Shown: piece after piece, positions 8,215-55,324 of the stretch
How the letters are laid out: every line of letters starts with the position of its first letter
How positions within the stretch are numbered: position 1 is the stretch's first letter
Assembly (NCBI GenBank): GCA_031375485.1
Contig: JANMHX010000328.1
Location: 8 to 64,007 of the forward strand
Length of the DNA stretch: 64,000 nucleotides
Origin: Gemmatimonadota bacterium
GTDB taxonomy: Bacteria > Gemmatimonadota > Gemmatimonadetes > Gemmatimonadales > GWC2-71-9
Direction: 5' to 3'
Position numbers and translations under genes: made by a program
Notes under the pieces: generated by a model
Databases searched by the model: none
Seen by the model: the letters and a program-made list of their open reading frames with translations, nothing else
Told to the model about the DNA's origin: nothing

Positions 8215-8237
8215 ATGATCCTCCGCCGCGCGGCTCG

Positions 8238-10142: not shown

Positions 10143-10151
10143 CGGGATTCT

Positions 10152-12167: not shown

Positions 12168-12179
12168 TCGGGTCCGCTC

Positions 12180-13163
12180 ATGCGAAAGACCTTCAAAGTC
12201 CTCGGCTGGGTTCTCGGCGCTGTCCTCGTCCTCGGGGCGGGTGCCTTTGGCTACATCCAGGCCACCTGGGACCGGGACTACAGTGCCGTCCCGCTTCCCT
12301 CAATTCACGCGTCCACGGACTCCGCCGTCGTTGCCCGGGGCGAGTATCTGGTCCGCGCCGTGGCTCATTGTTCCGAATGCCATGCCTTGGCGTCCGACTC
12401 CGCCGCCGGCATCATGGGCCCCCTCTCAGGCGGCTTCGCCCTGAACGCGGTGCCGTTTGGCGTCTTCGTGGCCGCGAACCTGACCGGAGACTCGGCAACC
12501 GGGCTCGGCGCGGTGAGCGACGGCGCGATTGCCCGGGTGCTGCGCCACGGTATCATGCGACAGGGCCGGCCGGCCCCCATCATGATGACGGCAGTGGGCC
12601 CGATGGCGGACGAGGATCTGACCGCGATCGTGTCGTACCTCCGCACCCAAGCGCCGGTGGCCAAGGTGGCTGCCGCCGACCGGTGGGGTATCGTGGCCAA
12701 GGCGATTTCGGGGATTCTGAAGCCCCGCTCCGATACGGCACCGCCGTTCGTCGCCGAAGGGGGAGCGAGCGTCGAACGCGGGCGGTATCTCGCGCTGGGT
12801 CCCGGCGCCTGCGGGACCTGCCACACCCCAACCGACCGGTTGTTCCGGACCAACGGGCCGGCCCTGTCAGGCAACACCATCCCTCAGCCGGACGAGCGAC
12901 GGTCGGGCTATGAGTTCGTTCCTCCGAACCTGACGCCCGACTCGGCGACCGGCCACATCGCGGCGTGGGGCGAAGAACAGTTCGTGTCCCGATTCCGCCA
13001 AGGGCGGATCTACCCCGGTTCCCGGATGCCGTGGGAGGCTTTTCAGCACCTCACGGAGAACGACGTCCGGAGTCTTTACCGGTACCTCCACTCGCTCTCG
13101 CCGGTCCGCCACCTCGTGGGATCGACCTATCGCAAGACCGGAGACGTGCCGACCGGCCCGTGA
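12180..13163 (+). CDS. Membrane-anchored diheme c-type cytochrome
   Basis: N-terminal TM helix and two CxxCH motifs (CSECH, CGTCH). Resembles cytochrome c subunits of membrane dehydrogenases. Confidence 0.8.
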   Translation: MRKTFKVLGWVLGAVLVLGAGAFGYIQATWDRDYSAVPLPSIHASTDSAVVARGEYLVRAVAHCSECHALASDSAAGIMGPLSGGFALNAVPFGVFVAANLTGDSATGLGAVSDGAIARVLRHGIMRQGRPAPIMMTAVGPMADEDLTAIVSYLRTQAPVAKVAAADRWGIVAKAISGILKPRSDTAPPFVAEGGASVERGRYLALGPGACGTCHTPTDRLFRTNGPALSGNTIPQPDERRSGYEFVPPNLTPDSATGHIAAWGEEQFVSRFRQGRIYPGSRMPWEAFQHLTENDVRSLYRYLHSLSPVRHLVGSTYRKTGDVPTGP

Positions 13164-37888: not shown

Positions 37889-38458
37889 TCAAGGAACCTC
37901 GAACAGTAAGTCGACGTGGACCACGATGTCCTCGGACATCTTGAGAATGCCGAGCATCTTGGAGAGCCCGCCGATGGAGTAGTCCTTGAGATTGAGGGGT
38001 GTCGTTGCCCAGAGACGGTAGCGGCGCTCGCCAAGCACCAGCCGGGCCGGAATCGTCGCGGATCGGGTGACGCCGTGCAGCGTGAACGTCCCCTCCAATT
38101 GCACCACCGTGGTATCGGCAATCCGCTCGCCGACCGCCAGCCGAGCCAGGTCGAAACGGATCGTCGGGAACTCGCTCGCCGCCATCGATTTCCTGAGATC
38201 CCGGTCCCGCCGGTCGTTGCCGGTCACCAGGGTTCCGACCGGGGCCTCCACCCAACCATGGACCTGGCTCAGATCGGTCCCACCGGTGAGCCGCCCCGTT
38301 ACCGTCGTCGTCGTCCCGGTGAAATCACCCAGGGTGGCTCGTCCGTCGAACCAGAGCTTGCCCTCGAGCACCGTGGCGGTCATGACCGGCTGTTGAGCGT
38401 TGACCACCGCGGCCCAGAACATCAGGGCCAGGGTCGAAGGCAACCTCACGATCCCCAT
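37889..38458 (-). CDS. YceI family periplasmic (polyisoprenoid/quinone-binding type) protein
   Basis: Signal peptide, then YceI motifs (…WFDGRATLGDFTG…, TGNDRRDRDLR, FPTIRF, LTLHGVT). The start is ATG 38458, which overlaps the SOD stop by 13 nt, or ATG 38422. Confidence 0.75.
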   Translation of the reverse strand: MGIVRLPSTLALMFWAAVVNAQQPVMTATVLEGKLWFDGRATLGDFTGTTTTVTGRLTGGTDLSQVHGWVEAPVGTLVTGNDRRDRDLRKSMAASEFPTIRFDLARLAVGERIADTTVVQLEGTFTLHGVTRSATIPARLVLGERRYRLWATTPLNLKDYSIGGLSKMLGILKMSEDIVVHVDLLFEVP

Positions 38459-39120
38459 CGCCGCTCGGCCTCGGTCCAATCGACGAAACTCAGGAATTTC
38501 TCGACGTACTCGGCCTTCCGATTCTGGTAGTCGATGTAAAACGCATGCTCGTAGGTGTCGATGACCACGAGCGGGACGGCGAGCCAAAGCGCGCCTTGGG
38601 CGTGCTCGTCACTGACGACATTATAGAGCCGGCCGTTGACCGGGTGGCGAACCAGCATCGCCCAGCCGGCGGCGGCTTTGGCGCTGGCGACGAAATCGAC
38701 CGCCCAACGGTCGACCGACCCGAACCGTTTGGCAATGGCGTCGCGAAGCCCGGTGCCGGGGTTGGTCTCCTTGAGCCCCAGGCCGTCGAAATAGAGCTCG
38801 TGCAAGATTACGCTGTTGCCGCGGCTCGATTGCAGCGCCTTCATTCGTTCGAACGCCAATGGGTCCACGGCTGGTCCGCCCGCGAAGCTCCGCTCCAGCG
38901 TTTGCTCCACAGAGACGAAGGCCTTGAGCGCTCCGCCGTAGTGGGCCGTGTGGTGGGGGGCGATCTGGGCGGCGCTCAGGAACCCGGGCACCTCCCGGTG
39001 CCGGAGCGGCTTGGGCTGGCCGGTCGAAAGCCCGCTCTCGTCCGCTTCGGGGAGCCCTGGCACGATCAGCGAACCAACCGCCGCGCCGGACGAAGCGAAC
39101 ACGAACGTGCGACGGTCCAT
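38446..39120 (-). CDS. Tat-exported Fe/Mn superoxide dismutase family protein
   Basis: MDRRTFVFASSGAAVG Tat signal. SOD ligand regions are present: PHHTAHYGG (compare HHTKHH) and VIDTYEHAFYIDYQNRK (compare DVWEHAYY). Confidence 0.75.
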   Translation of the reverse strand: MDRRTFVFASSGAAVGSLIVPGLPEADESGLSTGQPKPLRHREVPGFLSAAQIAPHHTAHYGGALKAFVSVEQTLERSFAGGPAVDPLAFERMKALQSSRGNSVILHELYFDGLGLKETNPGTGLRDAIAKRFGSVDRWAVDFVASAKAAAGWAMLVRHPVNGRLYNVVSDEHAQGALWLAVPLVVIDTYEHAFYIDYQNRKAEYVEKFLSFVDWTEAERRWGS

Positions 39121-39137
39121 AGGTCCCCCGTGGGTTG

Positions 39138-41255
39138 TCAGCGCCGAAAGGTATACTGGAACTTGGTCAGGAAGCGGTTGGACTCGAACGACCACCGATC
39201 GAGCCGGTTTCGCAGGTTGTGGTTATGAATCACGAACAGTTCCGCCGTCGGTGCAATGGTCCACCGGAGGCGGCTGTTGGCGCCGATGGTTTCCGATTCG
39301 GTGTCGTACTGCACCAGGCTGTTGATGGAGACGTTGGGCGAGAGATTGTACCGGATCCGAGTGCCGAACACGGTCGTGTCGAAGTTGCCCTCGGGCAGGC
39401 GGCCCCGGTTGTGCTCCGCGTTCACCTCGAACGCAAACGTGGCCGATGGACGCCAGCTCGCTTCGACCTCGAACTGATCGAGGCGCCCGCCGTAAAAATC
39501 CCCGAACCACCACGTCAGTTGACCACCGACCCGGCGGCGGGCCGCGAACTCCGCCTCGACCCGGTACCTGGTGTACCGATAGGCGCCCGGCTGCACGACG
39601 ACGCCGTCTGCCACCTCGAACGGTTCGACCAATCGTTCGCCCTGCGGGACGACGTTCGCTTCGATCCGGTCGCCACTTTCGAACCGCCAGTTGATCGGCG
39701 CCAGGAATAGCCGGTAGGACTCCCACCGTCCGTCAAGGTCCAGAGCCATCGTGAGCCGGTTCTCAAAGAACATCTGTCGAATGCCGAAGCGCCCGGGGCG
39801 GGGCGAGACATCGGCGCCAAGGGTCAGCAGGTGAACCCCGCGCCGGGGCACGAAACCAAGGGGCGGGTCGAAGGCATCACCGATCCGCTTCCAGGTCAGC
39901 GCGGCGTCGATCAAGTCGTTCGGATAGTCGATCTTGAGGCCGGCGGCCGTGTGATCGCCGTCGGCCGCTCCGGGCCGGTCGGCGGTCAAATACCACGCTC
40001 CAATCAAGAGATTCTTGTTCGTCAAGAATCGTGAGGTTCGAAAGGTGGCGTCGGCGCCGGCGAGCCATCCGGTACCACCGTTCGGATCGCCGACCGTGGC
40101 GATGGCCCCGATCGAGGACTCCCGGAGGATGTTCTGCCGGGCTCGAAACACCGCCAACTCGGTGGCCTCGGTCACCGAATCGACCGTGCCGGTCCGCGCC
40201 GCGATCAAACCCAGCCGGGTTGATCCGAATTGGCCATTCAGCTTGCCGCCGGCCTGGATCGGGACTTCCCGGCCGTTGACCAAGCCGATTCGGCGGCTGA
40301 AGAACGGAAGGATCTCGCTCCCAAGCCCGAGCCCAAACTCGAAGACATCGCTGCCTTCGAGAAAGAACGTTCGTTTTTCTGGAAAAAAGAGCGGGAACCG
40401 GGTCAGATTGGATCGGCGGGTGTCGACCTCGGTCTCGGCAAAGTCGGTATTGAGGCTCAAGGTGCCGAGAAAATTGGCGCCGAGACGTTGCTCGATCTCC
40501 GCGCTCGCGCTGAGTTCGCCGTCGAACGGGGCGGTGGGGTTTGGCTTGCCGCCGCCGGCCACGATGGCCGGCCGGATGCTCTGGCCCCGGCCGAGGTCGA
40601 ACCGGGGTAGCCCGGTGAGCAGGCCGGCGTCGGTCGTCTGACCGAACTTCCGGTCCCGCCGGGCGGCGGCCCATCGGTCAGTGGCCTGCGCCGCCTGAAC
40701 CCGGCGTTGGACGTTGAACGCCCACTGATCGGCGCCGGCCGGGAACGACAGACTCTTGACCGGAATCCGGATCTCCACCGACCACCCTGAGTCGCTCTGC
40801 GTCGTCGCGGCTTCCCAGACCGCGTCCCAATTGCTGTTTTCACCCTCGCCTTGGTTGGTGATCAGCGCATCATATCGGGCGCCCGAAGGATTCACGGCGA
40901 AGAGATACCCCGAGCGGCCATCACCGAAGGGATCGAAGACTAGCCGGACATGGTCCTCTTCGCGGAGATTCGCGTCCCGGGTCTTGGAGAAACTCGTCAC
41001 CGGGGCCCCGCCGTCGTCGATGGTGATCCCGACGACCAGGTAGCGGGGGTGGGTGAGAACCCGGACCACCGTGGCACCCGCCGCCCGCCCGCCCTCCAAC
41101 GGTTCGATCTGGGTCAACCCGCCGATCGAGTCCGCCGTGCCCCAGACCTTCTCGGTAAGCCGGCCGTCGAGGGTGACTTCCTCGGCCCCGGGCTTCGTCT
41201 TGAGAGTCGGGACTTGGAGGGCGAGGGCCGCCAGGAGATTGAGGAGTGAAACCAC
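39138..41255 (-). CDS. CBM9-like + DUF5916 outer-membrane beta-barrel-type protein
   Basis: N-terminal …VTLDGRLTEKVWGTADSIGGLTQIEP… is typical of the CBM9-like/DUF5916 family. The long beta-rich C-terminus ends in an aromatic residue-rich strand (…LTKFQYTFRR). GTG start. Confidence 0.65.
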   Translation of the reverse strand: MVSLLNLLAALALQVPTLKTKPGAEEVTLDGRLTEKVWGTADSIGGLTQIEPLEGGRAAGATVVRVLTHPRYLVVGITIDDGGAPVTSFSKTRDANLREEDHVRLVFDPFGDGRSGYLFAVNPSGARYDALITNQGEGENSNWDAVWEAATTQSDSGWSVEIRIPVKSLSFPAGADQWAFNVQRRVQAAQATDRWAAARRDRKFGQTTDAGLLTGLPRFDLGRGQSIRPAIVAGGGKPNPTAPFDGELSASAEIEQRLGANFLGTLSLNTDFAETEVDTRRSNLTRFPLFFPEKRTFFLEGSDVFEFGLGLGSEILPFFSRRIGLVNGREVPIQAGGKLNGQFGSTRLGLIAARTGTVDSVTEATELAVFRARQNILRESSIGAIATVGDPNGGTGWLAGADATFRTSRFLTNKNLLIGAWYLTADRPGAADGDHTAAGLKIDYPNDLIDAALTWKRIGDAFDPPLGFVPRRGVHLLTLGADVSPRPGRFGIRQMFFENRLTMALDLDGRWESYRLFLAPINWRFESGDRIEANVVPQGERLVEPFEVADGVVVQPGAYRYTRYRVEAEFAARRRVGGQLTWWFGDFYGGRLDQFEVEASWRPSATFAFEVNAEHNRGRLPEGNFDTTVFGTRIRYNLSPNVSINSLVQYDTESETIGANSRLRWTIAPTAELFVIHNHNLRNRLDRWSFESNRFLTKFQYTFRR

Positions 41256-42569: not shown

Positions 42570-44024
42570 CTACCGCCGGGCGGCGGCCGCGGCAATGCCT
42601 CGGAGCATCCCCCCGAAGATGACCAAGTGGAGCGGGTAGAGCGCGTACCAATAGAGCAGGCCCGCGAGTCCGCGCGGGTCGAAGATGGCGGTCTGCCGGA
42701 TTTCAGATGAGGGCCCCGTTCCCGTGACCTCGAATTGGAGCCAGGCTCGGCCCGGGAGCTTCATCTCCGCCGAGAGCCGGAGCAGGTGATTCGGCTCGAC
42801 CGACTCGACCCGCCAGCAATCGACCGTGTCACCCGCGGCCAAGGCGGTCGGATCGCGCCGGCCGCGGCGGAGTCCGGGCCCTCCCGCCGCGAGATCGATC
42901 AGACCGCGGAGCCACCACCACCCGTTGCCGTAGTACCAGCCGGTCCGGCCTCCAATTCGGGCAATTGGCCCGAACGCCTGGTCCGGTCCGGCCGCCACTC
43001 GGATGACCCGGGAGTCGACCAATCGGGTTCCGAACCGAGCCCCAGCCCACGATCCGCCGCTCGGCGTCATCGAGAGCGCGTCCGACCAGCGGGTTTGCGC
43101 GAACTCCCGGTCCTCATTGCTCAACGCCCGGGCCAAGGCGGCGCTCACCCCCATGGGTCTGATCGCGAACAGGGCGCCGGCGCTGTCGTCCCGGACCACC
43201 GTTTCATTGCGAAGACCGTCGATCAGCTTCCGTCCCACCCGGGCATACAGCGGCGTGACCAAGCGGAGCCACAGACTCGACAAATGCGGCGTGAGGATCG
43301 GGACCGGGATCATCAGGCGGCGAAGTCCCCGGAGGCGCGCGTACTCCTGCATCAAATCGCCGTACGACACCCGATCGGGACCGCCGATCTCCACGATCCG
43401 GCTTTGGTCGAGTGGCAGATCCAGGGCGGCCGTCAAGTACGCCAGCACGTCCTCGACCCCGATCGGTTGGGCCAAGGTGCGGACCCACCGAGGGGTGATC
43501 ATCACGGGGAGCCGTTCGACGAGGGCCCGGATCATTTCGAACGACAGGCTGCCCGACCCCAGGATGATCGAGGCCCGAAACTCGAGCGTGGGAATGTCCG
43601 ACCCGCTGAGGATCGCGCCGACCGCCTGCCGGCTTCGGAGGTGGGCCGATAAGTCGTTGCCGCCGCCCAACCCGCCCAAGTAGATGATTCGCCTGACTCC
43701 GGCCTCGCGTGCCGCGGCCACGAACGCCTCGGCACCCGCTCGCTCCTCGTCCTCGAAGGTGCCGGTGGTGCCCATGGCGTGGGCCAGGAAGTACACGGTG
43801 TCGACGCCGACCAGAGCAGCCTGAACGGTCGGCGGATCGGCAAGATCTCCGGGCACCACCTCGGTACCCGGGCGAACCTTGGCGGCGAGGAATTCGGGGC
43901 GCCGGGCCATGCAACGGAGCGGCGCCCCCCGCGCTTCAAGCAATGGGAGCAGACGGCCACCGATGTATCCGGTGGCGCCAATGATCAGTGTAAGTCTTTG
44001 CTTTGCTTGGCTTTGCTGCTCCAT
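42570..44024 (-). CDS. NAD(P)-binding SDR-like domain fused to a DUF2867 domain
   Basis: Rossmann motif LIIGATGYIGGRLL at the N-terminus. The C-terminal ~170 aa resembles DUF2867 (…FRVESVEPNHLLRLSAEMKLPGRAWLQFEV…). Confidence 0.7.
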   Translation of the reverse strand: MEQQSQAKQRLTLIIGATGYIGGRLLPLLEARGAPLRCMARRPEFLAAKVRPGTEVVPGDLADPPTVQAALVGVDTVYFLAHAMGTTGTFEDEERAGAEAFVAAAREAGVRRIIYLGGLGGGNDLSAHLRSRQAVGAILSGSDIPTLEFRASIILGSGSLSFEMIRALVERLPVMITPRWVRTLAQPIGVEDVLAYLTAALDLPLDQSRIVEIGGPDRVSYGDLMQEYARLRGLRRLMIPVPILTPHLSSLWLRLVTPLYARVGRKLIDGLRNETVVRDDSAGALFAIRPMGVSAALARALSNEDREFAQTRWSDALSMTPSGGSWAGARFGTRLVDSRVIRVAAGPDQAFGPIARIGGRTGWYYGNGWWWLRGLIDLAAGGPGLRRGRRDPTALAAGDTVDCWRVESVEPNHLLRLSAEMKLPGRAWLQFEVTGTGPSSEIRQTAIFDPRGLAGLLYWYALYPLHLVIFGGMLRGIAAAAARR

Positions 44025-44032
44025 TTAGGGAA

Positions 44033-44060
44033 GTTATACGGCCTGTACTTGTTTTGTCAA
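44033..44060 (-). promoter_or_regulatory. Near-consensus sigma70 promoter for the SDR/DUF2867-led operon (very short or no leader)
   Basis: On the minus strand: TTGACA-N16-TATAAC-N8-ATG(44024). Confidence 0.5.
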
Positions 44061-44123
44061 CGTTTTGTATGGCTCGATGAGCCCCCCCTTCCTTCCGCGC
44101 CCCGCTGGCCCTTCAATTCGAAC

Positions 44124-44792
44124 GTGGAGATTCCGATCGTCATCGAAACGCCGGCTCGACCGGTGTCAGCCCTTTTGCGTGAGGCCTCGGGCCCCGTGGC
44201 TGGCTATGTCCTGGCCCACGGAGCGGGGGCCGGCATGCGCCATCCGTTCATGGCGGACGTCGCGGCCGCGCTCGCCGCCGCCGGCGTCACCACGCTCCGG
44301 TATCAGTTTCCATTTATGGAAGCCGGAGGCCACCGTCCGGATTCCCCGGCGGTGGCCGTGGCGACGGTGCGGGCCGCAGTCGATCGGGCCCGACACCTCC
44401 TCCCTGGTCTGCCCCTCGTTGCCGGGGGCAAGTCCTTCGGGGGCCGGATGACCTCGACCGCGGCGGCCGAGTCGGCGCTCGAGGGGGTTCGCGGCCTGGT
44501 GTTCCTCGGCTTCCCGCTCCATCCGCCGAAGCGTCCCGCCACGACCCGGGGCGACCATCTCGATCGGGTTACGGTGCCGATGTTGTTCCTCCAGGGGACT
44601 CGGGATGATCTGGCCGAGGTCGGCTTGATCCGTTCGGTGGGCGCCCGGTTAGGCGGCCGGGCCACCCTCCACGAAATCGCCGAGGCTAATCACGCCTTCG
44701 CGGTGCCGAAACGCACCGGCCGGACCGCCGCCGACGTCATCGCCGAACTCGCGGCCACTACCGCCGAGTGGATCGGGACGCTCCCGCGGTGA
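44124..44792 (+). CDS. Alpha/beta hydrolase of the COG3571 / KANL3-TEX30-like family
   Basis: YVLAHGAGAGMRHPFM, nucleophile elbow GGKSFGGRM and LFLQGTRD. The start is uncertain: GTG 44124, or ATG 44077 if the C7 run at 44082-44088 is one base short. Confidence 0.7.
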   Translation: MEIPIVIETPARPVSALLREASGPVAGYVLAHGAGAGMRHPFMADVAAALAAAGVTTLRYQFPFMEAGGHRPDSPAVAVATVRAAVDRARHLLPGLPLVAGGKSFGGRMTSTAAAESALEGVRGLVFLGFPLHPPKRPATTRGDHLDRVTVPMLFLQGTRDDLAEVGLIRSVGARLGGRATLHEIAEANHAFAVPKRTGRTAADVIAELAATTAEWIGTLPR

Positions 44793-47692
44793 AGCCGTCA
44801 TCGAATCCCACTCCGTCCCCGGCCCAAGCCCAAGCCATCGGTGCCGGCGCCGGGCCGGTCCTGGTGCTGGCGGGTCCTGGCGCCGGGAAGACGTTCTGTC
44901 TGATCGAGAGGATCCGGTTCCTGGTCGACCAGCGCGGTGTCGATCCCGAGCGGATCTGTGCGTTGACCTTCACCAACAAGGCCGCCGAGGAAGTGGCCGC
45001 CCGGCTCCGCCGCGAGCTCGGGCCCCGGGCCGATGCCGTCACCCGGTCCACCATCCACTCCCTCTGCGTCAAGATCCTCCGGGCCCACGGCGAGGCGTTA
45101 GGCTTGGAGAAAGGCTTTGGGATCGCCGACGAAGACTATCAGAAGGAGCTGCTTGGCTGGCTCAAAGTGCCGCCCAAGTGGCGGAGTTCGCTCCTCGGCC
45201 GGTTTGGCCTGGCCCGGCTCGGCGCGAAACCGCTGCACGAGGACGACGCCCGGACCTTTGAGCGCTACCGGGCCTATCTCACCAAACGCGGGATGATCGA
45301 CTTCGACGATATCGTCCATCTCACCAAGGAGTTGTTTGACCGGTTTCCCGGTATCGCCGCGGAGGTGGCCGGCCGGTGGGATCATCTCTTGGTCGACGAG
45401 GTCCAGGATCTCAATCCGGTCCAGTTTTCGATCGTGACCACGTTGGGTCGCGCCCATGGCAACGTCTTCGTCGTCGGCGACGACGAACAGTCGATTTTCT
45501 CGTGGACCGGAGCCGACCCCCGGCTGATTGCGACGTTCGCCAACGAATTCCGCGCGGTGGACCGGATCGTCCTCGACGAGAACCGGCGCACCGCGGGGCA
45601 GATCTTTGCCCTGGCCCGCCGCTTGATCGCGAGCAACGCCCCGTTGTTCGGCCCGAAGCAGATCACGGCCACCCATGAGTCGGAGTACCCCGTGGTGGCC
45701 CGTTCGTTTCCCGATGAACACGCCGAGGCGGTCTGGCTACTCGAGGACGTCCAAGCCGACCGGGCTGCCTCCGGGCTCCCGTGGGGCGAATACGCCGTCC
45801 TCTACCGCAAACACGCCGATGGGCATCTGCTCGAAGGCGCCCTGATGCAGGCCGGCTTGCCGTGCCGCTTGGCCCACGGCCGGGCGCTGGCCGACGACTC
45901 GGCGGTCCGGTATCTCATCGCGGCGCTCAAGGTGATCTCGTATCCCGGCGACCCGGTCATCAACGAAGGCTTTGCACGGGTGGTGCTGCCGGGCGCGCTC
46001 TGCGACACGCTCCGGAAGGCCGCCTTGAAGGACGGGATCGGCTTTCTCGGAACCCTCCATCGCCAGGCCCGGGCCCGGCCCCGCACCGACGAGGAAGGGC
46101 GGAAGATTCGCCGGGCCCTGGCGGCCATGCAGAACCTGACGGCGTTAGGCCAGCGGCACCGGCATTTGGCGCGCCTGGTCGACGAGATTCTATCCCAACG
46201 AGTGGGCGCCTACCATACCATCCTCGAGCAACGGGCCGAGGAACTTTCCGATCCGGCAGGATATCCGGAAGTACTCCGGCTGGCCCGGGAACTGGAACGG
46301 GTCCGCGATGCTCGGGTTCCGGTGCTGATCCAAGCGATGGGGGGGCTCGAGTTCGGCCTGGCCGGGATGTTGGCCGGCGCGGGGATCCGGCTTTTCGGCA
46401 TCACCACGGCGCCCCCGCCCGGTCGGTTCGTCCTCGGCCCGGCGTGGTCGTGCCCCGATCTCGGGCTCGCGCTCACGGTGTTCAAAGCGCTCCAGTTCAT
46501 GACCGCGACCACCGAGGGTGCCTCCGGCAATTTCGTCGCCGTCGACCTCGAGACCACCGGCCGGGACGTGGCCACGGCCGAGGTCGTCGAGCTCGGCGCG
46601 GTCCGGGTCCGAGACTGGGAAATCGTGGCGGAGTTCCACCAGCTGGTGAAGCCGGCCGTCCCGATCGAGCCGGGCGCGAGCGCCACCCACCACTACAGCG
46701 ACGCGGATGTGGCCAACCAGCCCTCGTTTGACGAGGTGTGGCCCCGGTTCAAAGCCTTTGCCGCGACCGACGAGCTGGTCGCCCACAACGGCTACGATTT
46801 CGATTTCCCGATTCTCCGCCGGATGTCGGGCGACCGGGACTTCGTGACCTACGACACGCTGCCCTTGGCTCGTTCACTCCGCCTCGGCAGCGCCAAACTC
46901 CAGCACTTGGCGGCCCGGTTCGGGATCGATCCCGGCACCGCCCACACCGCGCTCTCGGACGTCCGGACGTTGGCCCAAGTGTACCGGAAGCTGGAGGAGG
47001 AGAAAGTGGCCCGGGCCCGGCGCGTGGCCCTGTCCAACGTACTCGACTATCTCGGCGTGGCCTTGGCCCTTTCCGACCCCGAGACGTTAGGGCCGGAAGC
47101 CCATCTGCTCCGGGATCTCACCTCCATCTATGCCCTCGGCCGGTTCAGTGACTGCCTCGAGTTCTACCGGGCCGAACGCGACCGCTCGAACCAGGGTGCC
47201 GTCGCCGTCGACGAACTGATCGAACGTCTCGGCGGCCAGTCGCTCATGCTCAAAGTCCGCGCCGAAAAACGCTCCGACCAGCGCTACCCAGCCGCCATGG
47301 CCCGGGTCCGCCGCCTCCTCGACGATCTCGCGGAGGAAACCCTCGAAGCCGAAATCCAGGAATTCCTAAGCCGCGTCGCCCTCTCGAGGAGCGACGGCAT
47401 CGAAACCGACCAGGACCGCGTCAACCTCCTGACCCTCCACTCCACCAAAGGCCTAGAATTCTCCCGAGTCTACATCGTCGGCGTCGAAGACGCCGAGATG
47501 CCCGGCCTCCAATCCCTGCCGAGTGCCGAGCGCCGAGCGCCGAGTGCCGAGCTCGAAGAATCCCGCCGGCTCTTGTACGTCGGAATGACCCGGGCCAAGG
47601 AGCGTCTGGTCATGACCCGGGTGGAAGCCAGATCCGGCAAGTTGACCGGCGGCCACCGCTTCCTCGATGAGATGGGTCTCTCGCCTACTTGA
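44789..47692 (+). CDS. UvrD/PcrA-family SF1 helicase with an inserted DEDDh (DnaQ-like) 3'-5' exonuclease domain
   Basis: Helicase motifs: GPGAGKT, LLVDEVQD, VVGDDEQSIF, ENRRT, TLHSTKGLEF, YVGMTRAKERL. Exonuclease motifs at nt ~46523-47003: VDLETTG, AHNGYDFDFPIL, HTALSDVRTL. GTG 44789 overlaps the upstream stop as GTGA; the track start is GTG 44768. Confidence 0.85.
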   Translation: MKPSSNPTPSPAQAQAIGAGAGPVLVLAGPGAGKTFCLIERIRFLVDQRGVDPERICALTFTNKAAEEVAARLRRELGPRADAVTRSTIHSLCVKILRAHGEALGLEKGFGIADEDYQKELLGWLKVPPKWRSSLLGRFGLARLGAKPLHEDDARTFERYRAYLTKRGMIDFDDIVHLTKELFDRFPGIAAEVAGRWDHLLVDEVQDLNPVQFSIVTTLGRAHGNVFVVGDDEQSIFSWTGADPRLIATFANEFRAVDRIVLDENRRTAGQIFALARRLIASNAPLFGPKQITATHESEYPVVARSFPDEHAEAVWLLEDVQADRAASGLPWGEYAVLYRKHADGHLLEGALMQAGLPCRLAHGRALADDSAVRYLIAALKVISYPGDPVINEGFARVVLPGALCDTLRKAALKDGIGFLGTLHRQARARPRTDEEGRKIRRALAAMQNLTALGQRHRHLARLVDEILSQRVGAYHTILEQRAEELSDPAGYPEVLRLARELERVRDARVPVLIQAMGGLEFGLAGMLAGAGIRLFGITTAPPPGRFVLGPAWSCPDLGLALTVFKALQFMTATTEGASGNFVAVDLETTGRDVATAEVVELGAVRVRDWEIVAEFHQLVKPAVPIEPGASATHHYSDADVANQPSFDEVWPRFKAFAATDELVAHNGYDFDFPILRRMSGDRDFVTYDTLPLARSLRLGSAKLQHLAARFGIDPGTAHTALSDVRTLAQVYRKLEEEKVARARRVALSNVLDYLGVALALSDPETLGPEAHLLRDLTSIYALGRFSDCLEFYRAERDRSNQGAVAVDELIERLGGQSLMLKVRAEKRSDQRYPAAMARVRRLLDDLAEETLEAEIQEFLSRVALSRSDGIETDQDRVNLLTLHSTKGLEFSRVYIVGVEDAEMPGLQSLPSAERRAPSAELEESRRLLYVGMTRAKERLVMTRVEARSGKLTGGHRFLDEMGLSPT
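47518..47552 (+). repeat. Five tandem GCCGAGY heptanucleotide units inside the helicase CDS
   Basis: GCCGAGT GCCGAGC GCCGAGC GCCGAGT GCCGAGC encodes …PSAERRAPSAE… between helicase motifs V and VI. Confidence 0.85.
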
Positions 47693-48500
47693 TGAGCTGC
47701 CATTTCGTACGGGTGTAGGCGACCCGGAACCCGTGTCGCTCGGAATTCCGTTGCGAGGCGCTGCCCGGCAAAGTCGTGATCATGGCCACGTCGCAGCCCC
47801 GCTCGACCGCAAACCGAAGCCGGGCGCTGAGCAGGGCGAGTTGGGCGCCGTGACGGCGCTCCTCGGGGATCGTGCTCGCGCCCGCAAGGAGTGCCACTCC
47901 GCCGGTGATCGAGAGCGCGCCCGCCGCGATCGGCCGGCCCTGGCGTTCGGCCACGAAGGTCAGGGCGCCGGGCCGGCGGGCCCCGATCTCCGACAACTCG
48001 GCCATGGTCGAGGCGTACTCCGGGAACTCACTCCAGCCTCTCGTCGCGGTATCGGCCCAGACCCGCCACTCGTCCGGACCCGTTTGCCGAACCGATACCT
48101 CCGGGGAGGCTCCTCGGATATCGATGGTCGCATCAATCGGCCGATAGAGAACATTCGACCACTCCATCGGCCGGTACCCGCGGACAGGTAGCCGCGCCAT
48201 GGTCGCAAGGTCCGCGAGCGGGCTGACCTCGTGGAAGGTCGGGGCGCCCCGCTCGGCGAAGAATCCTTCGATCCGGTCGAATACCTCGGGCGTCCCTGGT
48301 TCGAAGACTCCGAGGCCGAACGTCTGGGTGACCGGCGAGTCGACCCCGTCGAACACCGCGTAGGCGCCGGCCGCCTCGATCCACTCCGCGCCGCTCCCGG
48401 GCCGAAGGATCCGGCGGCCTTCGGCGAACTGGGCGCACCCGGTTGCCTCGGTGCGTTCGAGCCGGCGGGCCAGCTCGAGATCGGCAAACGGGACGCTCAC
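47685..48500 (-). CDS. Two-domain GNAT family N-acetyltransferase
   Basis: 271 aa. The C-terminal GNAT core has an acetyl-CoA loop (…EERRHGAQLALLSARL…) and ERHGF. The GTG start overlaps the DUF72 stop as GTGA. Confidence 0.7.
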   Translation of the reverse strand: MSVPFADLELARRLERTEATGCAQFAEGRRILRPGSGAEWIEAAGAYAVFDGVDSPVTQTFGLGVFEPGTPEVFDRIEGFFAERGAPTFHEVSPLADLATMARLPVRGYRPMEWSNVLYRPIDATIDIRGASPEVSVRQTGPDEWRVWADTATRGWSEFPEYASTMAELSEIGARRPGALTFVAERQGRPIAAGALSITGGVALLAGASTIPEERRHGAQLALLSARLRFAVERGCDVAMITTLPGSASQRNSERHGFRVAYTRTKWQLIK

Positions 48501-49195
48501 AGCTTGGCCTTGAGACTCATGGCCACGGGCGGGCCGGAACCGGGCGAGTGGTCATGCTTGAAATAAATGAAGGCATCAGTCCACCCGAAGCCAGCGATTC
48601 GCGCGGCCCACGCGGCCAGGCCCGCTTCGTCGTAATCGAGCTTGTGGAGCCGGACGTAGCCCCAGTCCGCCGTGGCCACCAACGGCGTCGGCACGCCGTC
48701 TTGGTCCGAAATGCAGAGGGGAACGTCCCGGGCTTTGAGCACCTCGAACACTTGGTCGTCCTCAAACCAGGTCTGATTTCGAAACTCGATCGTGATCCGC
48801 CACCGCTTCGGGACGATATCGAGAAAGGCCTCGAGTCGAGGAATGTCCTTCTTCAAGTGGGGCGGGAGCTGAAAGAGTGTGGGGCCGAGTTTGCTGCCTA
48901 ACACCGCAACGGTCTGGGCCAGATACCTGACCAGTTCCCCCGCGTCCCGGAGTTGGGCGTGATGGGTAATCCGCTGACTGGCCTTGATGGCGAACTGGAA
49001 GCCTTCCGGGACCTCGGCGGCCCAATCGAGCAGGTTCTTCTCGCGGGGCATCCGGTAGAACGTGTTGTTGATCTCGACCGTCGGGAATTGGCTCGCGTAA
49101 TACGCCAGCATGCCCTTGTCGGGAAGTTTGGCCGGATAGAACGGCCCTTTCCATTCCTTGAAGGCAAATCCGCTGGTCCCGACGTACGACGCCAT
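48497..49195 (-). CDS. DUF72 (YecE/TM1631) family protein
   Basis: MASYVGTSGFAFKEWKGPFYP…FPTVEINNTFY is the canonical DUF72 N-terminus. Its start overlaps the Ku stop as TGATG. Confidence 0.82.
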   Translation of the reverse strand: MASYVGTSGFAFKEWKGPFYPAKLPDKGMLAYYASQFPTVEINNTFYRMPREKNLLDWAAEVPEGFQFAIKASQRITHHAQLRDAGELVRYLAQTVAVLGSKLGPTLFQLPPHLKKDIPRLEAFLDIVPKRWRITIEFRNQTWFEDDQVFEVLKARDVPLCISDQDGVPTPLVATADWGYVRLHKLDYDEAGLAAWAARIAGFGWTDAFIYFKHDHSPGSGPPVAMSLKAKL

Positions 49196-49971
49196 CAGGA
49201 GGCCCGGGCCAGGCTCGCCTTCAAGGCCTCCATCAGGTCGATGATCTTGCCGCCGCCATCCTGGGCCGGCTCCGCCGTGATTTCGTGACCCTCGACCTTC
49301 TTCTGGATGGCCTCGAGCACCCGGGCCCGAACCAGGTCGCGGTATTTCTCAGGCTGGAAGTCGTCGGTAGCGGCCTGCTCGATCAGCTGCTTGGCGAGCG
49401 TCAGCTCCATGGGCTTCAGTTCGGCGTCGCCGAGGGGCACTTCGTTGGCCGGTTTGAGCTCGTCTTGGTAGTGGAGCTGTTCCATCACGAGGAGCCCGTT
49501 CATGGGCCGGAGCAAGACGAGATGTTGTTGGCCGCGGGCGGCATATTGCCCAAGCGCCGCCCGACCGGTATCGCCGAGGGCCTGCGCCAGGAGTTTGTAG
49601 GCCCGGTCGCCGCCCTTGTCGGGGCCGAGGAAGTAGACCTTCTCGAGATAAATCCGGTCGACCTTGGCGAGCGGCACGAACTCCGCGATGTCGATGGTAT
49701 TGGTGGCCTTCTCTTCCAGCGCCTTGAGCTCGTCGGCTGAAAAGACGACGTACTGATCCTTGGCAAACTCGTAGCCCTTGGCCATCTCGTCCCGGGGGAC
49801 GATCTCGCTGTCCTTGGGGCAGGTGTACTGCTGCTTGACCCGCGTCCCACACTTCTTGTGGAGCAGGTTGAACGAGACGGCGCTGGTCGACTCGGCCGAC
49901 GAATAGACATGAACGGGCACCGAGACCAGGCCGAAGGAAATGGTGGCGGTTCCGATCGAACGAGCGGGCAT
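49195..49971 (-). CDS. ku: NHEJ DNA-end-binding protein Ku
   Basis: ATG 49971 has an AGGAGG SD. MPARSIGTATISFGLVSVPVHVYSA… is the canonical bacterial Ku N-terminus. 258 aa. The upstream part of the track ORF is junk. Confidence 0.92.
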   Translation of the reverse strand: MPARSIGTATISFGLVSVPVHVYSSAESTSAVSFNLLHKKCGTRVKQQYTCPKDSEIVPRDEMAKGYEFAKDQYVVFSADELKALEEKATNTIDIAEFVPLAKVDRIYLEKVYFLGPDKGGDRAYKLLAQALGDTGRAALGQYAARGQQHLVLLRPMNGLLVMEQLHYQDELKPANEVPLGDAELKPMELTLAKQLIEQAATDDFQPEKYRDLVRARVLEAIQKKVEGHEITAEPAQDGGGKIIDLMEALKASLARAS

Positions 49972-50018
49972 GAGAGGCCTCCTGGCGTTGGCTTCTAAGG
50001 TACTGGCGACCGCCCCGG

Positions 50019-50046
50019 TTGAGAATGTCCGGATCGGGCCTAGAAT
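50019..50046 (+). promoter_or_regulatory. Sigma70-type promoter giving a leaderless PQQ-dehydrogenase mRNA
   Basis: TTGAGA-N16-TAGAAT-N6-ATG(50053). There is no SD. Confidence 0.5.
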
Positions 50047-50052
50047 TCCCGG

Positions 50053-51954
50053 ATGCGAATCGTCCTCCTTGCCCTGCTGGCCCCCGCCGTCCTGTCGGCC
50101 CAGACCGACTGGCCGGCCTGGGGCGGCGACCCCGGCGCCATGAAGTACTCGGCCCTCACCGACCTCCACCCCGGCAACGTCGGCCGGCTGACGAAGCTCT
50201 GGGAATGGAGCACCGGCGAGGTGCCGCTGGCCCAGTGGAAGACCCGGCCCGGGCTGTTTCAGGCCACGCCTCTGATGATCGGCGATACCCTGTTCCTGCC
50301 GACCTCGTATAACCAAGTGGCGGCTCTCGACGCCGCCACTGGCCGCGAGTACTGGCGGTTCGATCCCCGGGCCTATGAGGCCGGCCAAGCGCCTAACGGT
50401 ACCGGATTCGTTCACCGGGGGGTTGCCAGTTGGAGCGATGGGAAAACTCGCCGGATCTTCCTCAATACCCGCTGGCGCCTGATCGCCCTCGATGCCGCCA
50501 CTGGTAAGCCGATCCCTTCTTTTGGGGTTCAAGGCGAGGTCGACCTGGCTGGAGACCTGGTGTGGCAGGTCAATCGCCGGCGGTACACCAATACCTCGCC
50601 TCCGGTGGTGTGGGGTGACCTGGTCATCGTGGGCAACGGGGTGGCCGACAAGTTCACCTACAAGGGCGATCCGCCCGGTGATGTCCAGGCCTTCGACGTC
50701 CGAACCGGCCGGCGGATCTGGAAATGGAGTCCGATTCCCCAGGGTGGCGAGGGATCGGAAACGTGGGAGGGTGAGTCATGGCGGTTCACCGGTCACACGA
50801 ACGTGTGGGCGCCCTTCAGCGTCGACGTGGCGCGGGGACTCGTGTACCTCCCGGTCAGCACCCCGAGTAACGACTGGTACGGCGGCGCTCGCAAGGGCGA
50901 CAATCTCTTTGCCGAGTCCCTGGTGTGCCTCGATGCCCGAACCGGCAAGAAACAGTGGCACTTCCAGATCGTCCACCACGGACTCTGGGACTACGACCTC
51001 CCAACGGCGCCGGTGCTCGGCCGGGTCACCCAAACCGGCGGACCGGTCGATTTCGTCGCGATGCCGACCAAAATGGGGATGCTGTTCGTGTTCGATCGGG
51101 TGACGGGCAAGCCGCTCTGGCCGATCGAGGAACGCCCGGTGCCGGCAAGCGATGTCCCCGGCGAGCGCGCCGCCCCGACCCAGCCGTTTCCCACCAAACC
51201 GGCGCCCTACGCCCGCCAGGGCTTCAGTGCCGCGGATGTGGTCGACTTCACCCCGGCCCTGAAAGCGTTGGCGACGAGGACCGTGGCCGGCTACCGAACC
51301 GGCCCGTTGTTCACGCCCCCCTCGCTCCAGGGGACGGTGGCGTCACCGGGACTGATCGGCGGCTCGGGGTGGGGCGGCGGTGCCTATGATCCGGAAACCG
51401 GGATCATCTACGTGAAGGCCACCAACCAACCGGCCCTGCTCAAGTTGGTCAAGCCGCCGTCGTCCGACTCACTCGACGCCGCTTACGCCCTCGATTTTGC
51501 GGCGGGCCTCGACCTCAATGCCAAGTTGTTGTCGAGTTCCGACGATCCGCAGAGGGCGGCGGCGTCTTTGCCGATCAGCAGGCCACCGTACGGAACGCTG
51601 ACGGCCATCGATCTCGCGACCGGCGATCACCGGTGGCAAGTGCCGTTGGGCGACTCCCCGGAGATCCGGAATCATCCGCTCTTGAAGGGTGTGAACCTGC
51701 CTCCGCTCGGCGTGGCCGGCGCTCCCGGGGCCATCGTGACCAAAGGAGGGCTGCTCTTTGCGACCGGTGGCGGTTCGGCCCTCTATGCGCTGGACAAGGC
51801 CACCGGGAAGGTGCTCTGGCAGACGGCGCTCGGCGCGCTCGGTTACGCCAATCCGATGACGTACCGCACCCGGGCGGGGCAGCAGGTAGTGGTGATTGCG
51901 ACCGGCGGCGGGGCGGCGCCGGCCAAACTCCAGGCCTTTGCGTTACCGCGGTGA
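50053..51954 (+). CDS. Secreted PQQ-dependent (quinoprotein glucose/quinate dehydrogenase-type) dehydrogenase
   Basis: Signal peptide, then DWPAWGGDPGAMKYSAL…NVGRLTKLWEW and repeated W-motif propeller blades across 633 aa. Confidence 0.8.
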   Translation: MRIVLLALLAPAVLSAQTDWPAWGGDPGAMKYSALTDLHPGNVGRLTKLWEWSTGEVPLAQWKTRPGLFQATPLMIGDTLFLPTSYNQVAALDAATGREYWRFDPRAYEAGQAPNGTGFVHRGVASWSDGKTRRIFLNTRWRLIALDAATGKPIPSFGVQGEVDLAGDLVWQVNRRRYTNTSPPVVWGDLVIVGNGVADKFTYKGDPPGDVQAFDVRTGRRIWKWSPIPQGGEGSETWEGESWRFTGHTNVWAPFSVDVARGLVYLPVSTPSNDWYGGARKGDNLFAESLVCLDARTGKKQWHFQIVHHGLWDYDLPTAPVLGRVTQTGGPVDFVAMPTKMGMLFVFDRVTGKPLWPIEERPVPASDVPGERAAPTQPFPTKPAPYARQGFSAADVVDFTPALKALATRTVAGYRTGPLFTPPSLQGTVASPGLIGGSGWGGGAYDPETGIIYVKATNQPALLKLVKPPSSDSLDAAYALDFAAGLDLNAKLLSSSDDPQRAAASLPISRPPYGTLTAIDLATGDHRWQVPLGDSPEIRNHPLLKGVNLPPLGVAGAPGAIVTKGGLLFATGGGSALYALDKATGKVLWQTALGALGYANPMTYRTRAGQQVVVIATGGGAAPAKLQAFALPR

Positions 51955-52735: not shown

Positions 52736-55324
52736 ATGGCGGACCAAGAGCCATCTCCAGCGGAGCAACTGGCCGCGTACCGGGCCAAACGGTCCGCTGA
52801 TCGGACCCCAGAGCCATTCGGGGGCGAGGCCGTGCCGTCCCAAACCGGCGGCCTCTTCGTCGTCCACAAACACGCCGCCCGCCATCTCCACTTCGACTTT
52901 CGGTTCGAGATGGACGGGGTTCTCAAGTCATGGGCCGTGCCGCGAGGACCTTCGTACGACAATACCGAGAAGAAACTGGCCGTCCGGGTCGAAGACCATC
53001 CGCTCGAATACGGTGATTTTGAGGGCCTGATTCCCGAGGGCAATTACGGTGCGGGCGCGGTGGTGGTGTGGGACCGGGGTGAGTGGATTCCACTGGAGGA
53101 TCCGAAGGCTGGACTGGAAAAGGGCAAACTTTTGTTTGAGCTCAAGGGCTACAAGCTCCGGGGCCGTTGGACGCTGGTGAAGATCAAAAAGAGCGAAAAA
53201 GACTGGCTCTTGATCAAAGAGCGGGATGCCTGGGTCAAGCAGCCCGGGGACGACTTTGCCCAGGAATCGGTCCTGTCGGGCCTCACGGTCGAAGATCTCA
53301 AGGCCGGCCGGACGCCGGCCGATCTGCTCCGCGACGAGCTGGTCCGCCTCGAGGCCCCGCGCCGGGTGGTGGAGGCCGGTTCGACCGACGTGATGTTGGC
53401 CGAGACGTCGGAGGAGGGATTTTCCAAAGACGGGTGGATCTTCGAGCTCAAGCTCGACGGCTACCGGCTCATGGTGAACCACCGCTCAGGCGAGGCCCGA
53501 CTCTTCACCCGAAGCGGCGCCGACTACACCGCGGTGTTCCCGGAGATTGCCCGCGCCATCAAGGCGCTGCCGCTCGAGAACGTGATCCTCGACGGCGAAG
53601 TGGTGGTGCTCGATCCGACGGGCGTGCCGAACTTCGCGCTGCTGCAGCGGCGGGGGCGGTTGGGCAAGGGCATCGAGATCCGGCGGGCGGCCATCGAGCT
53701 CCCCGCGACGTTCTTTGCCTTCGACCTATTGGCGTTCGAGGATTTTGATCTCCGGCCGCTGCCACTCCTGGAACGGAAGCGGCTGCTGAAGAGGATCCTC
53801 CCGCCGCTCGGCCCGATCCGGTACCTCGATCATATCGAGCGCGACGGGGCACCGTTCCTCGCGCAGGTGACCCAGATGGGGCTCGAGGGCATCATCGCGA
53901 AGAAAGCCGACGCGCCATACCGGGCCGGCCGGACCCAATCGTGGCTCAAGATCAAAGCCGACAAGACCGCCGACTTCGTCATCGTCGGGTTCACCGCTCC
54001 GCGGGGGGGCCGGGGCGGCTTCGGCGCCCTCCACCTGGCCGATTACGTCGGCGGGCGGCTCGTCTATGCGGGCCGGGTTGGCACCGGCTTCACCGACCAG
54101 CAGCTGGCCGAGTACCACGATCTGCTGGTGCCGCTCGTCCGGCCGCTGGCGCCGTGCGACGGCCCGCTCGCCGATCCCAAGGCCGAACCGATGCCGATCG
54201 ATCAGGTCCCGGAGATGAAGACGACGAGCTGGGTTGAGCCCCGTTTTGTCTGCGAGGTCCGCTCGCGGGAGTGGACGCCCGACGGGGTTCTTCGCCATCC
54301 CGCGTTCATCCGGCTCCGGGACGACAAACGGCCCGACCAGTGCGAACGGCAAGGGTGGACCGAGCCATCGGTTCCGAACCGGCCGGACCCTCCGGCCGAC
54401 CGGCCGCCGGCCCAACGCAAGACCACGTTCTCGAACCTGAACAAGGTGTTCTGGCCGGACGAGAAGTACACCAAGGGCGACTTGATCGACTACTACCGGA
54501 CCATCGCACCCTGGCTGCTCCCGTATCTCCGGAACCGGCCCGTGGTCCTGACCCGTTTTCCCGACGGCATCAACGGCAAATCGTTCTATCAGAAGGATGC
54601 CCCGGAGTTCGCGCCCGATTGGATCCGGACCGTCCCGATCTGGAGTGAGGACACCCAGCGAGACATCCGGTACTTCGTGTGCGACGACGAGGAAACCCTG
54701 GTGTACTTGGCCAATTCCGGCACCATTCCGCTCCACATCTGGCAGAGCCGGATCGGTTCGCTGGAACTGCCCGACTGGTGCGTCATCGATCTCGATCCGA
54801 AGGAAGCACCGTTTCGCGATGTCCTGACGGTGGCCCGGACCCTCCATCGGATTTGTGAGGAGTTGTCGCTCCCGAACTACGTCAAGACGACCGGGAAGAC
54901 CGGTCTCCATGTCCTGATTCCGCTGGGCCGCCAGTGCACCTACGAACAGTGCCGAACGTTAGGCGAGCTGTTGTCCCGGCTGGTCATCGCTGAGCACCGG
55001 GATATCGCCACCATTACCCGGAGTATCACCAAGCGGGGCGACAAGGTCTATCTGGACTATCTCCAGAACCGGCACGGCCAGTTGATCGTCTCGCCGTATA
55101 GCGTCCGGCCGCTGCCGGGGGCGACGGTGTCGATGCCGCTGGTGTGGGAGGACGTCACCGACGACCTCGAGCACCGCCGCTTTACCTTCACCATCAAGAC
55201 CGCGGTGGCCCGGATGGAAGGGCTCGGGGCCGATCCCTTGGCCCCGGTGCTCGAAGAGAAGCCGGATCTCGTCGCGGTCTTGGCGCGGCTGGCCGCCAGA
55301 TGGGCCGCCTCGAAAGACGGCTGA
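52736..55324 (+). CDS. ligD: Multidomain NHEJ DNA ligase D (phosphoesterase-ligase-polymerase order)
   Basis: PE domain (FVVHKHAARHLHFDFRFE…WAVPRGPS), ligase domain with the adenylation Lys (FELKLDGYR), and primase-polymerase domain (…FWPDEKYTKGDLIDYY…VYLDYLQN). Confidence 0.93.
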   Translation: MADQEPSPAEQLAAYRAKRSADRTPEPFGGEAVPSQTGGLFVVHKHAARHLHFDFRFEMDGVLKSWAVPRGPSYDNTEKKLAVRVEDHPLEYGDFEGLIPEGNYGAGAVVVWDRGEWIPLEDPKAGLEKGKLLFELKGYKLRGRWTLVKIKKSEKDWLLIKERDAWVKQPGDDFAQESVLSGLTVEDLKAGRTPADLLRDELVRLEAPRRVVEAGSTDVMLAETSEEGFSKDGWIFELKLDGYRLMVNHRSGEARLFTRSGADYTAVFPEIARAIKALPLENVILDGEVVVLDPTGVPNFALLQRRGRLGKGIEIRRAAIELPATFFAFDLLAFEDFDLRPLPLLERKRLLKRILPPLGPIRYLDHIERDGAPFLAQVTQMGLEGIIAKKADAPYRAGRTQSWLKIKADKTADFVIVGFTAPRGGRGGFGALHLADYVGGRLVYAGRVGTGFTDQQLAEYHDLLVPLVRPLAPCDGPLADPKAEPMPIDQVPEMKTTSWVEPRFVCEVRSREWTPDGVLRHPAFIRLRDDKRPDQCERQGWTEPSVPNRPDPPADRPPAQRKTTFSNLNKVFWPDEKYTKGDLIDYYRTIAPWLLPYLRNRPVVLTRFPDGINGKSFYQKDAPEFAPDWIRTVPIWSEDTQRDIRYFVCDDEETLVYLANSGTIPLHIWQSRIGSLELPDWCVIDLDPKEAPFRDVLTVARTLHRICEELSLPNYVKTTGKTGLHVLIPLGRQCTYEQCRTLGELLSRLVIAEHRDIATITRSITKRGDKVYLDYLQNRHGQLIVSPYSVRPLPGATVSMPLVWEDVTDDLEHRRFTFTIKTAVARMEGLGADPLAPVLEEKPDLVAVLARLAARWAASKDG

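Follow-up and report, generated by a model that had tools for sequence, protein, structure and literature searches.

The usual picture of bacterial end joining is a minimal system of Ku and LigD, and little is understood of how DNA ends are opened and trimmed ahead of ligation. Superfamily 1A (SF1A) motors translocate in the 3'-5' direction, and in UvrD-family enzymes the switch from translocase to helicase is governed by the 2B domain. DEDDh enzymes also work in the 3'-5' direction, removing nucleotides from a free 3' end. The canonical DinG/XPD family, which belongs to superfamily 2 (SF2), has 5'-3' polarity and an iron-sulfur domain. AddA, RecB and AdnAB possess a UvrD-type motor and a C-terminal PD-(D/E)XK endonuclease, form heteromers with AddB, RecC/RecD or AdnA and process DNA ends for recombination. 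In DinG of Firmicutes, a DEDD(h) 3'-5' exonuclease is fused to the N-terminus of the helicase scaffold (PMC3270479, PMC12525004), and DinG of S. aureus was described as a helicase turned nuclease (PMC3270479). Mycobacterial UvrD1 is activated by Ku, and its Tudor domain is required for Ku binding and activation (bioRxiv 10.1101/2023.09.29.560180). In eukaryotes, Ku stimulates the exonuclease of WRN, which acts in non-homologous end joining (NHEJ) (PMC13377182, PMC4831024, PMC5150655). Here we describe a 64,000-nucleotide (nt) stretch of contig JANMHX010000328.1 from a Gemmatimonadota bacterium (assembly GCA_031375485.1), hereafter the window, in which a hydrolase gene is followed by a gene for a UvrD-like helicase with an internal DEDDh exonuclease. 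This helicase-exonuclease gene converges on a Ku operon and is a candidate for a part of the end-joining pathway.

A UvrD-like helicase with an internal DEDDh exonuclease

The helicase gene (44789..47692, plus strand) is read from a GTG at 44789 to 47692 and comprises 967 codons. This start is supported because the closest homolog (P0001, 93% identity) also has 967 amino acid (aa) residues; an in-frame GTG at 44768, which would overlap the hydrolase gene too, is the other possible start. The protein belongs to both the SF1A UvrD-like and the DEDDh superfamilies, as identified with Pfam, NCBIfam and an AlphaFold2 (AF2) model. Its Pfam matches are UvrD-helicase at aa 11-254 and UvrD_C, which is split and whose last stretch covers aa 836-944. 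In a phmmer search of the PDB, PcrA, UvrD, Rep and UvrD1 matched the helicase with E values from 1e-58 to 1e-67. The initial annotation had credited the helicase with the full set of SF1A motifs, and these were identified as Q13, GxGKT (aa 31-35), T60-A66, DExQD (aa 203-207), GDxxQS (aa 230-235), YR (aa 339-340), TxHxxKGLEF (aa 882-891) and YVGMTR (aa 930-935). Motifs Q, I, Ia, II, III, IV, V and VI were nearly all invariant or at least 90% conserved among 57 sequences. The AF2 model had a mean predicted local distance difference test score (pLDDT) of 89.9 and a predicted template modeling score (pTM) of 0.85. Its top PDB matches in Foldseek were PcrA, UvrD and Rep (E ~1e-29; target-normalized template modeling score, TM, ~0.65), and these matches span the motor only. 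Compared with PcrA, UvrD and Rep, the model has the same four-subdomain 1A/1B/2A/2B fold. Translocation of this motor is expected to be 3'-5' by analogy to its family.

PcrA (1pjr) aligned to residues 12-507 and 802-949 of the helicase only; thus about 300 extra residues are present in 2B. By the gap in this alignment and the secondary structure of the model, the insertion extends over aa ~509-875 (46313..47413, plus strand) and consists of an alpha/beta part (aa 509-575), the DEDDh domain and a helical part (aa ~745-875). It is placed between motif IV (Y339 and R340) and motif V (aa 882-891). The DEDDh domain is of the DnaQ/epsilon/PolC type and covers aa ~580-745 (46526..47023, plus strand), of which aa 583-732 matched Pfam RNase_T with 85.8 bits against a cut-off of 24. 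Pfam, the PcrA alignment and the AF2/Foldseek results therefore agree with the earlier description of a complete DEDDh exonuclease inside a UvrD scaffold between motifs IV and V. The three exonuclease motifs, DLETTG (aa 586-591, nt 46544-46561), HNGYDFDFPIL (aa 666-676, nt 46784-46816) and HTALSD (aa 719-724, nt 46943-46960), were all found within the interval of about 46523 to 47003 to which they had been assigned.

The catalytic residues are D586 and E588 (nt 46544-46552), D672 (46802-46804), H719 (46943-46945) and D724 (46958-46960). All five were invariant among 57 homologs whose identities ranged from 52 to 93%. In a more distant set with identities down to 25%, D586, D672 and D724 remained invariant, and E588 and H719 were conserved in at least 90%. 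Loss of these residues in homologs, which would have indicated a catalytically dead domain, was thus not observed, and by sequence both catalytic modules appear intact and under selection. The nearest solved relatives of the exonuclease domain were the PolC exonuclease 2p1j (2e-22) and epsilon (4e-12), which are DNA-acting enzymes, and the domain was also near the PRK07883 DEDD repair exonucleases. Its predicted 3'-5' polarity is taken from the DEDDh family. The initial annotation held that no such enzyme had been characterized. In line with this, searches of solved structures with PDB phmmer and Foldseek did not identify the same architecture, and the literature search found nothing on UvrD-scaffold helicases with an internal DEDDh exonuclease or a 2B insertion.

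Similar to UvrD, PcrA and Rep, the protein has all SF1 motifs in a 1A/1B/2A/2B fold. Different from these helicases, it carries about 300 residues with the DEDDh exonuclease in 2B, and where their 2B has the duplex-binding GIG motif it shows a conserved VLP (V399, L400 and P401). No Pfam match to a C-terminal Tudor domain was found, and the chain ends about 18 residues past 2A. The scores for the NCBIfam equivalogs are about one third of the cut-offs, being 329 versus 911 for pcrA, 278 versus 1144 for uvrD and 313 versus 951 for rep. Similar to UvrD1, the protein is a UvrD-family helicase tied to bacterial Ku, here by conserved gene neighborhood. UvrD1, however, has no nuclease domain, and the protein is not of the UvrD1 type because it lacks the Tudor domain. 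As in WRN, a single chain holds both a 3'-5' helicase and a 3'-5' exonuclease of the DnaQ fold. Different from WRN, which has an SF2 RecQ motor and an N-terminal DEDDy exonuclease, the protein has an SF1 motor and an internal DEDDh exonuclease, and it is not known to contain Ku-binding motifs. Firmicute DinG shares with it the fusion of a DEDD(h) 3'-5' exonuclease to a helicase scaffold, but the exonuclease of DinG is N-terminal instead of inserted, and the protein is not of the DinG type because DinG belongs to SF2. AddA, RecB and AdnAB likewise combine a UvrD-type motor and a nuclease for DNA-end processing, from which the protein differs by not being of the AddA/RecB type because it has no PD-(D/E)XK domain. 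Finally, Gabija and DRT helicases come with partner genes that are absent here, and the protein belongs to neither system. The closest functional resemblance may be that to WRN with Ku, as an analogy and not as homology of the whole proteins.

Association with Ku, DUF72, LigD and a PF20408 hydrolase

Consistent with the initial annotation, the helicase gene converges on a Ku operon, which is encoded on the minus strand (47685-49971) in the order GNAT-DUF72-Ku. Ku (49195..49971; Pfam Ku, E 5.5e-46) has 258 residues and, as read from the translation, starts with MPARSIG. Directly downstream of Ku is a DUF72 gene (PF01904, YecE-like; 48497..49195; Pfam E 1e-60). The last gene of the operon encodes a GNAT acetyltransferase identified with Pfam (47685..48500), and the helicase gene overlaps its stop region by 8 nt. 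On the plus strand, a complete LigD (52736..55324) is predicted by Pfam to possess phosphoesterase, ligase and primase-polymerase domains.

Homologs were scanned with one genome per species, and the best 80 of at least 583 relatives were used as loci, against which the neighboring proteins of the window were searched with tblastn. The hydrolase was counted on the same strand within 2 kb of the helicase-exonuclease gene at loci with at least 2 kb of flank on both sides (n = 46). Ku, DUF72, LigD and control neighbors were counted within 10 kb at loci with at least 9.5 kb of flank on both sides (n = 27). The PF20408 hydrolase was found near the helicase-exonuclease at 26 of the 46 loci. Ku, DUF72 and LigD were found at 14, 14 and 13 of the 27 loci, respectively, whereas the control neighbors (GNAT, M20 peptidase, NAD/DUF2867 and pyrroloquinoline quinone (PQQ) dehydrogenase) were each found at only 0-2 of the 27. 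Thus, general synteny has decayed while this linkage persists, and within Gemmatimonadota the helicase-exonuclease shows linkage to ku and ligD beyond general synteny, as expected for an accessory factor of NHEJ.

The five genes for helicase-exonuclease (HEL), PF20408 hydrolase (Hyd), DUF72, Ku and LigD recur in at least six gene orders (arrowheads give direction). These include Hyd>HEL><DUF72<Ku LigD> (L003), HEL>Hyd><DUF72<Ku LigD> with all gaps shorter than ~420 nt (L019, L035 and L055), <DUF72 Hyd>HEL><Ku LigD> (L010 and L023), <DUF72<Ku LigD>HEL> (L007) and HEL...<DUF72<Ku LigD>Hyd>, in which the hydrolase is directly after LigD (L062). In L089, whose homolog has 43% identity, the order is HEL><PolB<DUF72<Ku LigD>. 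That the five genes have been kept together through many rearrangements is the chief argument that they share a pathway. As a separate observation, PolB of L089 (7977-10352, minus strand) is a family-B DNA polymerase with DNA_pol_B_exo1 and DNA_pol_B domains that lies within the Ku-DUF72 operon, convergent with the helicase-exonuclease homolog.

One further order, <Ku LigD>Hyd><DUF72 (L088, 3103-7955), was found via the hydrolase alone. No helicase-exonuclease gene was found within the flanks read at L088, where a 735-aa upstream open reading frame is not the helicase. The presence of the hydrolase after LigD without the helicase-exonuclease indicates that the hydrolase is linked to the end-joining genes independently. 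DUF72 followed Ku on the same strand with a gap of at most ~110 nt in 26 of the 28 Ku-containing loci and likewise in L089. Thus, DUF72 looks like a conserved operon partner of Ku in Gemmatimonadota. The literature search found nothing on DUF72. Different from DUF72, GNAT was found at just one of the 80 loci, that of the closest relative (L001). In mycobacterial NHEJ, participation of a Sir2 deacetylase has been reported (PMC3102665), and by analogy control of Ku by acetylation via GNAT is conceivable.

The hydrolase (44124..44792, plus strand) is a lid-less serine alpha/beta hydrolase of 222 residues by Pfam and AF2, with a match to PF20408 (Abhydrolase_11, COG3571-type) at E 5e-48 and 163.8 bits against a cut-off of 27. 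Its frame runs from a GTG at 44124 to the TGA at 44790-44792. A GTG at 44196 is an alternative, and the start is uncertain because the gene calls of homologs span 198-236 residues. The catalytic triad of S104 (in GKSFG), D161 and H190 was invariant among 27-36 homologs, as was the HGAG oxyanion motif. Other invariant residues of the hydrolase family are the basic residues R59, R108, R142, K196, H133 and H145, and R71 was invariant in one family alignment (A4) and conserved in at least 90% in another (A5). The AF2 model (pLDDT 96.1) shows a minimal lid-less alpha/beta fold. With the invariant basic residues, this open lid-less active site could fit an anionic or macromolecular substrate. The Foldseek neighbors of the model, with TM values of at most 0.80, were all either lid-less esterases of minimal size or DLH-like hydrolases; neither these nor the PDB profile search, which returned the same generic enzymes, gave a hint of function. 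Nothing on bacterial COG3571/PF20408 was found in the literature.

As read from the sequence, the GTG start of the helicase gene lies on the TGA stop of the hydrolase gene in a GTGA overlap (44789..44792, plus strand). Both reading frames bear out this junction, which had been noticed before, and the overlap suggests translational coupling of the two genes. In L001 (94% identity), the junction is roughly the same, with a 6-nt gap between the tblastn matches. In the branch near the window, the hydrolase is upstream of the helicase and 57-89% identical; in the branch with 48-53% identity, a paralog that is 31-39% identical and also belongs to PF20408 is immediately downstream. A hydrolase-helicase fusion ("Rosetta stone") was not found in the two candidates, P0308 and P0276, whose N-terminal extensions have no similarity to the hydrolase. 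Of the earlier suggestion that the hydrolase is an accessory or regulatory subunit, the adjacency stood; a putative role as subunit is derived from that adjacency only, and the hydrolase also adjoins LigD instead of the helicase gene in L088 and L062.

The genes adjoining the helicase gene in the window encode the hydrolase, an NAD-binding protein and GNAT. A scan of 43900-50200 for promoters and terminators gave no signal over shuffled expectation near these genes, and the G+C content of the window is ~66% throughout. The surroundings include genes for an Fe/Mn superoxide dismutase (38446-39195, minus strand) and an ABC1/UbiB-type atypical kinase (55331-56749, minus strand). The other genes of the region belong to ordinary metabolism and encode peptidases, a lactate permease, a PQQ dehydrogenase and a BNR/sortilin-repeat protein. 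No mobile-element genes were found among the genes around the locus in the window.

Distribution of the helicase-exonuclease family

More than 120 clusters matched the helicase over its full length with identities ranging from 51 to 93%, and nearly all of them are named Gemmatimonadota. The best 80 of the species-level relatives are metagenome-assembled genomes (MAGs) of Gemmatimonadota, except for one labeled "bacterium", one Acidimicrobiia and one Steroidobacteraceae, of which the latter two are probably misbinned. The family is chromosomal, vertically conserved and phylum-wide in Gemmatimonadota. Its members are labeled in the databases only as "UvrD-helicase domain-containing protein" or "DNA polymerase III epsilon family exonuclease".

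A HMMER search of 1.84 billion representatives revealed a second tier of proteins of ~960-1090 residues with identities of 25-38%. All nine second-tier members scanned with Pfam had UvrD-helicase with RNase_T inside UvrD_C, and one of them was from Latescibacterota. The contexts of distant homologs in other lineages were of a housekeeping kind or had no other tie to end joining. These homologs were found beside PBP1a and polysaccharide export genes (L081-L083), after a dcw/ftsZ cluster (L084), immediately before gatCAB (L085), beside DinB-family and redox genes (L090) and among polysaccharide genes (L091). In L086, two tandem paralogs (6359-9403 and 10001-13018) of 1014 and 1005 residues both contain UvrD and an internal RNase_T; by analogy to AdnAB and AddAB, the pair may form a heterodimeric helicase-exonuclease. 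A uracil-DNA glycosylase gene is also present near this pair.

The helicase-exonuclease was also considered as the only UvrD of the phylum. This is contradicted by L055, a Gemmatimonadaceae MAG in which the divergent neighbor of the helicase-exonuclease gene (872-3121, minus strand) encodes a PcrA/UvrD-like helicase of canonical length with one contiguous match to TIGR01073 of 430 bits; the nearest canonical helicases bore names that gave no information on this point. Given this neighbor, the exonuclease-bearing enzyme is an additional, specialized paralog, at least in L055.

Proposed function and alternatives

We propose that the helicase-exonuclease acts in Ku/LigD end joining in Gemmatimonadota, a claim that rests on gene neighborhood within a single phylum and that we hold at about even chances. 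The protein would be a single-polypeptide, bifunctional DNA end-processing enzyme. Its ATP-driven SF1A motor would track along single-stranded DNA in the 3'-5' direction, opening duplex ends, nicks or flaps. The epsilon/PolC-like DEDDh exonuclease in the regulatory 2B subdomain, presumably coupled physically to the motor, would shorten the exposed strand from its 3' end. In this way, 3' overhangs, mismatched 3' termini or 3' flaps could be trimmed at Ku-bound or frayed ends, which would then be filled and sealed by the polymerase and ligase of LigD. Such a task would parallel that of WRN with eukaryotic Ku and the presumed one of UvrD1 with mycobacterial Ku. The co-transcribed lid-less hydrolase and the Ku-linked DUF72 protein would also belong to this pathway.

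Several observations weigh against this proposal. At about half of the loci with sufficient flanks, Ku is missing within 10 kb, and the linkage is confined to one phylum in which relatedness inflates the counts. The pairing with the hydrolase and the nearness of Ku, on which the initial annotation had built, stand within Gemmatimonadota but do not extend to the distant homologs of other lineages with 25-36% identity, as neither Ku nor a PF20408 hydrolase was found near the six distant-homolog contexts. The housekeeping contexts seen there indicate that the ancestral role was probably broader than end joining. In addition, UvrD1 depends on its C-terminal Tudor domain to be activated by Ku, and the protein lacks this domain. 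Finally, the 3' end of the strand tracked by an SF1A motor is left behind the motor while 2B faces the duplex ahead. The 3' end could reach the 2B-mounted nuclease by looping; alternatively, a dimer might allow the nuclease to act in trans, or its substrate might be the opposing strand, whose 3' end would be presented once the break is synapsed.

A broader role could also apply in Gemmatimonadota. As a general excision helicase with an ExoI/ExoX-like 3'-5' exonuclease of its own, the enzyme would strip away nicked strands during mismatch or excision repair or act on stalled forks, and the nearness of Ku and LigD would reflect loose clustering of repair genes. A textbook case of such a pairing is mismatch repair of E. 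coli, where UvrD acts together with ExoI and ExoX, both of which are DEDDh exonucleases. The Gemmatimonadota loci without Ku would agree with this role, and so would the occurrence of the same architecture before gatCAB and after dcw/ftsZ in other phyla, from which excision or fork processing is probably the ancestral function. The gatCAB-adjacent copy of L085 resembles the pcrA-ligA...gatCAB region of Firmicutes. For a general helicase of this kind, however, the scores are far under the pcrA, uvrD and rep equivalog cut-offs (329 versus 911 bits for pcrA), the Tudor domain is missing and the GIG motif of 2B is replaced. Moreover, a canonical-type PcrA/UvrD paralog coexists in L055, and the five-gene linkage outlasts rearrangements that other neighbors do not. 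We regard a general excision role as possible but less likely than the role in end joining.

Extensive degradation of ends to load RecA, as in homologous recombination by AddA, RecB or AdnAB, is improbable. Although the UvrD-type motor is similar to those of AddA, RecB and AdnB and the tandem paralogs of L086 recall the heterodimeric AdnAB and AddAB, Pfam identified no PD-(D/E)XK domain, and the window contains no adjacent AddB- or RecC-like partner. A 3'-5' exonuclease would also destroy the 3' tail needed by RecA, and the conserved neighbors are end-joining genes instead of recombination genes. Least probable, with only a very slight chance, is the anti-phage or anti-plasmid defense module with an accessory hydrolase that the initial annotation had offered as an alternative. 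UvrD-like helicases and DEDDh domains do occur in defense systems, and PADLOC reported matches to GajB, a DRT-associated helicase and Cas-associated DEDDh models. These are, however, generic domain matches, and no GajA OLD-type nuclease, reverse transcriptase or other partner gene was found within ±10 kb. Further evidence against defense is that the gene is inherited vertically, lies on chromosomes among metabolic genes and is conserved across one phylum, in at least 583 genomes at the species level. When 72,556 plasmids and 50,697 phages were searched by tblastn with the insertion region, all matches were to stand-alone DEDDh exonucleases and none had full coverage, and no equivalent architecture was found among viral structure predictions.

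The five-gene neighborhood has apparently not been described before and suggests an expanded bacterial end-joining apparatus. More tentatively than the end-joining role itself, we suggest that Gemmatimonadota, and possibly their relatives, have an end-joining machine that is expanded by a WRN-like helicase-exonuclease on a UvrD scaffold, a PF20408 hydrolase and a DUF72 TIM-barrel protein. In such a machine, the nuclease would control, or be controlled by, the 2B regulatory domain, and the hydrolase (KANSL3/TEX30-type) and DUF72 might free DNA ends of chemical blocks or protein adducts or modify repair proteins.

A conserved helicase-exonuclease that is genetically tied to Ku and LigD would be a concrete candidate for the missing end-processing step of bacterial end joining. 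If the proposal is true, the enzyme would be a convergent counterpart of the eukaryotic WRN-Ku pair. The nuclease inside 2B could show how conformational control by 2B is coupled to a second catalytic activity. Moreover, PF20408/COG3571 and DUF72, both of which are large families of unknown function, would gain a testable pathway assignment.

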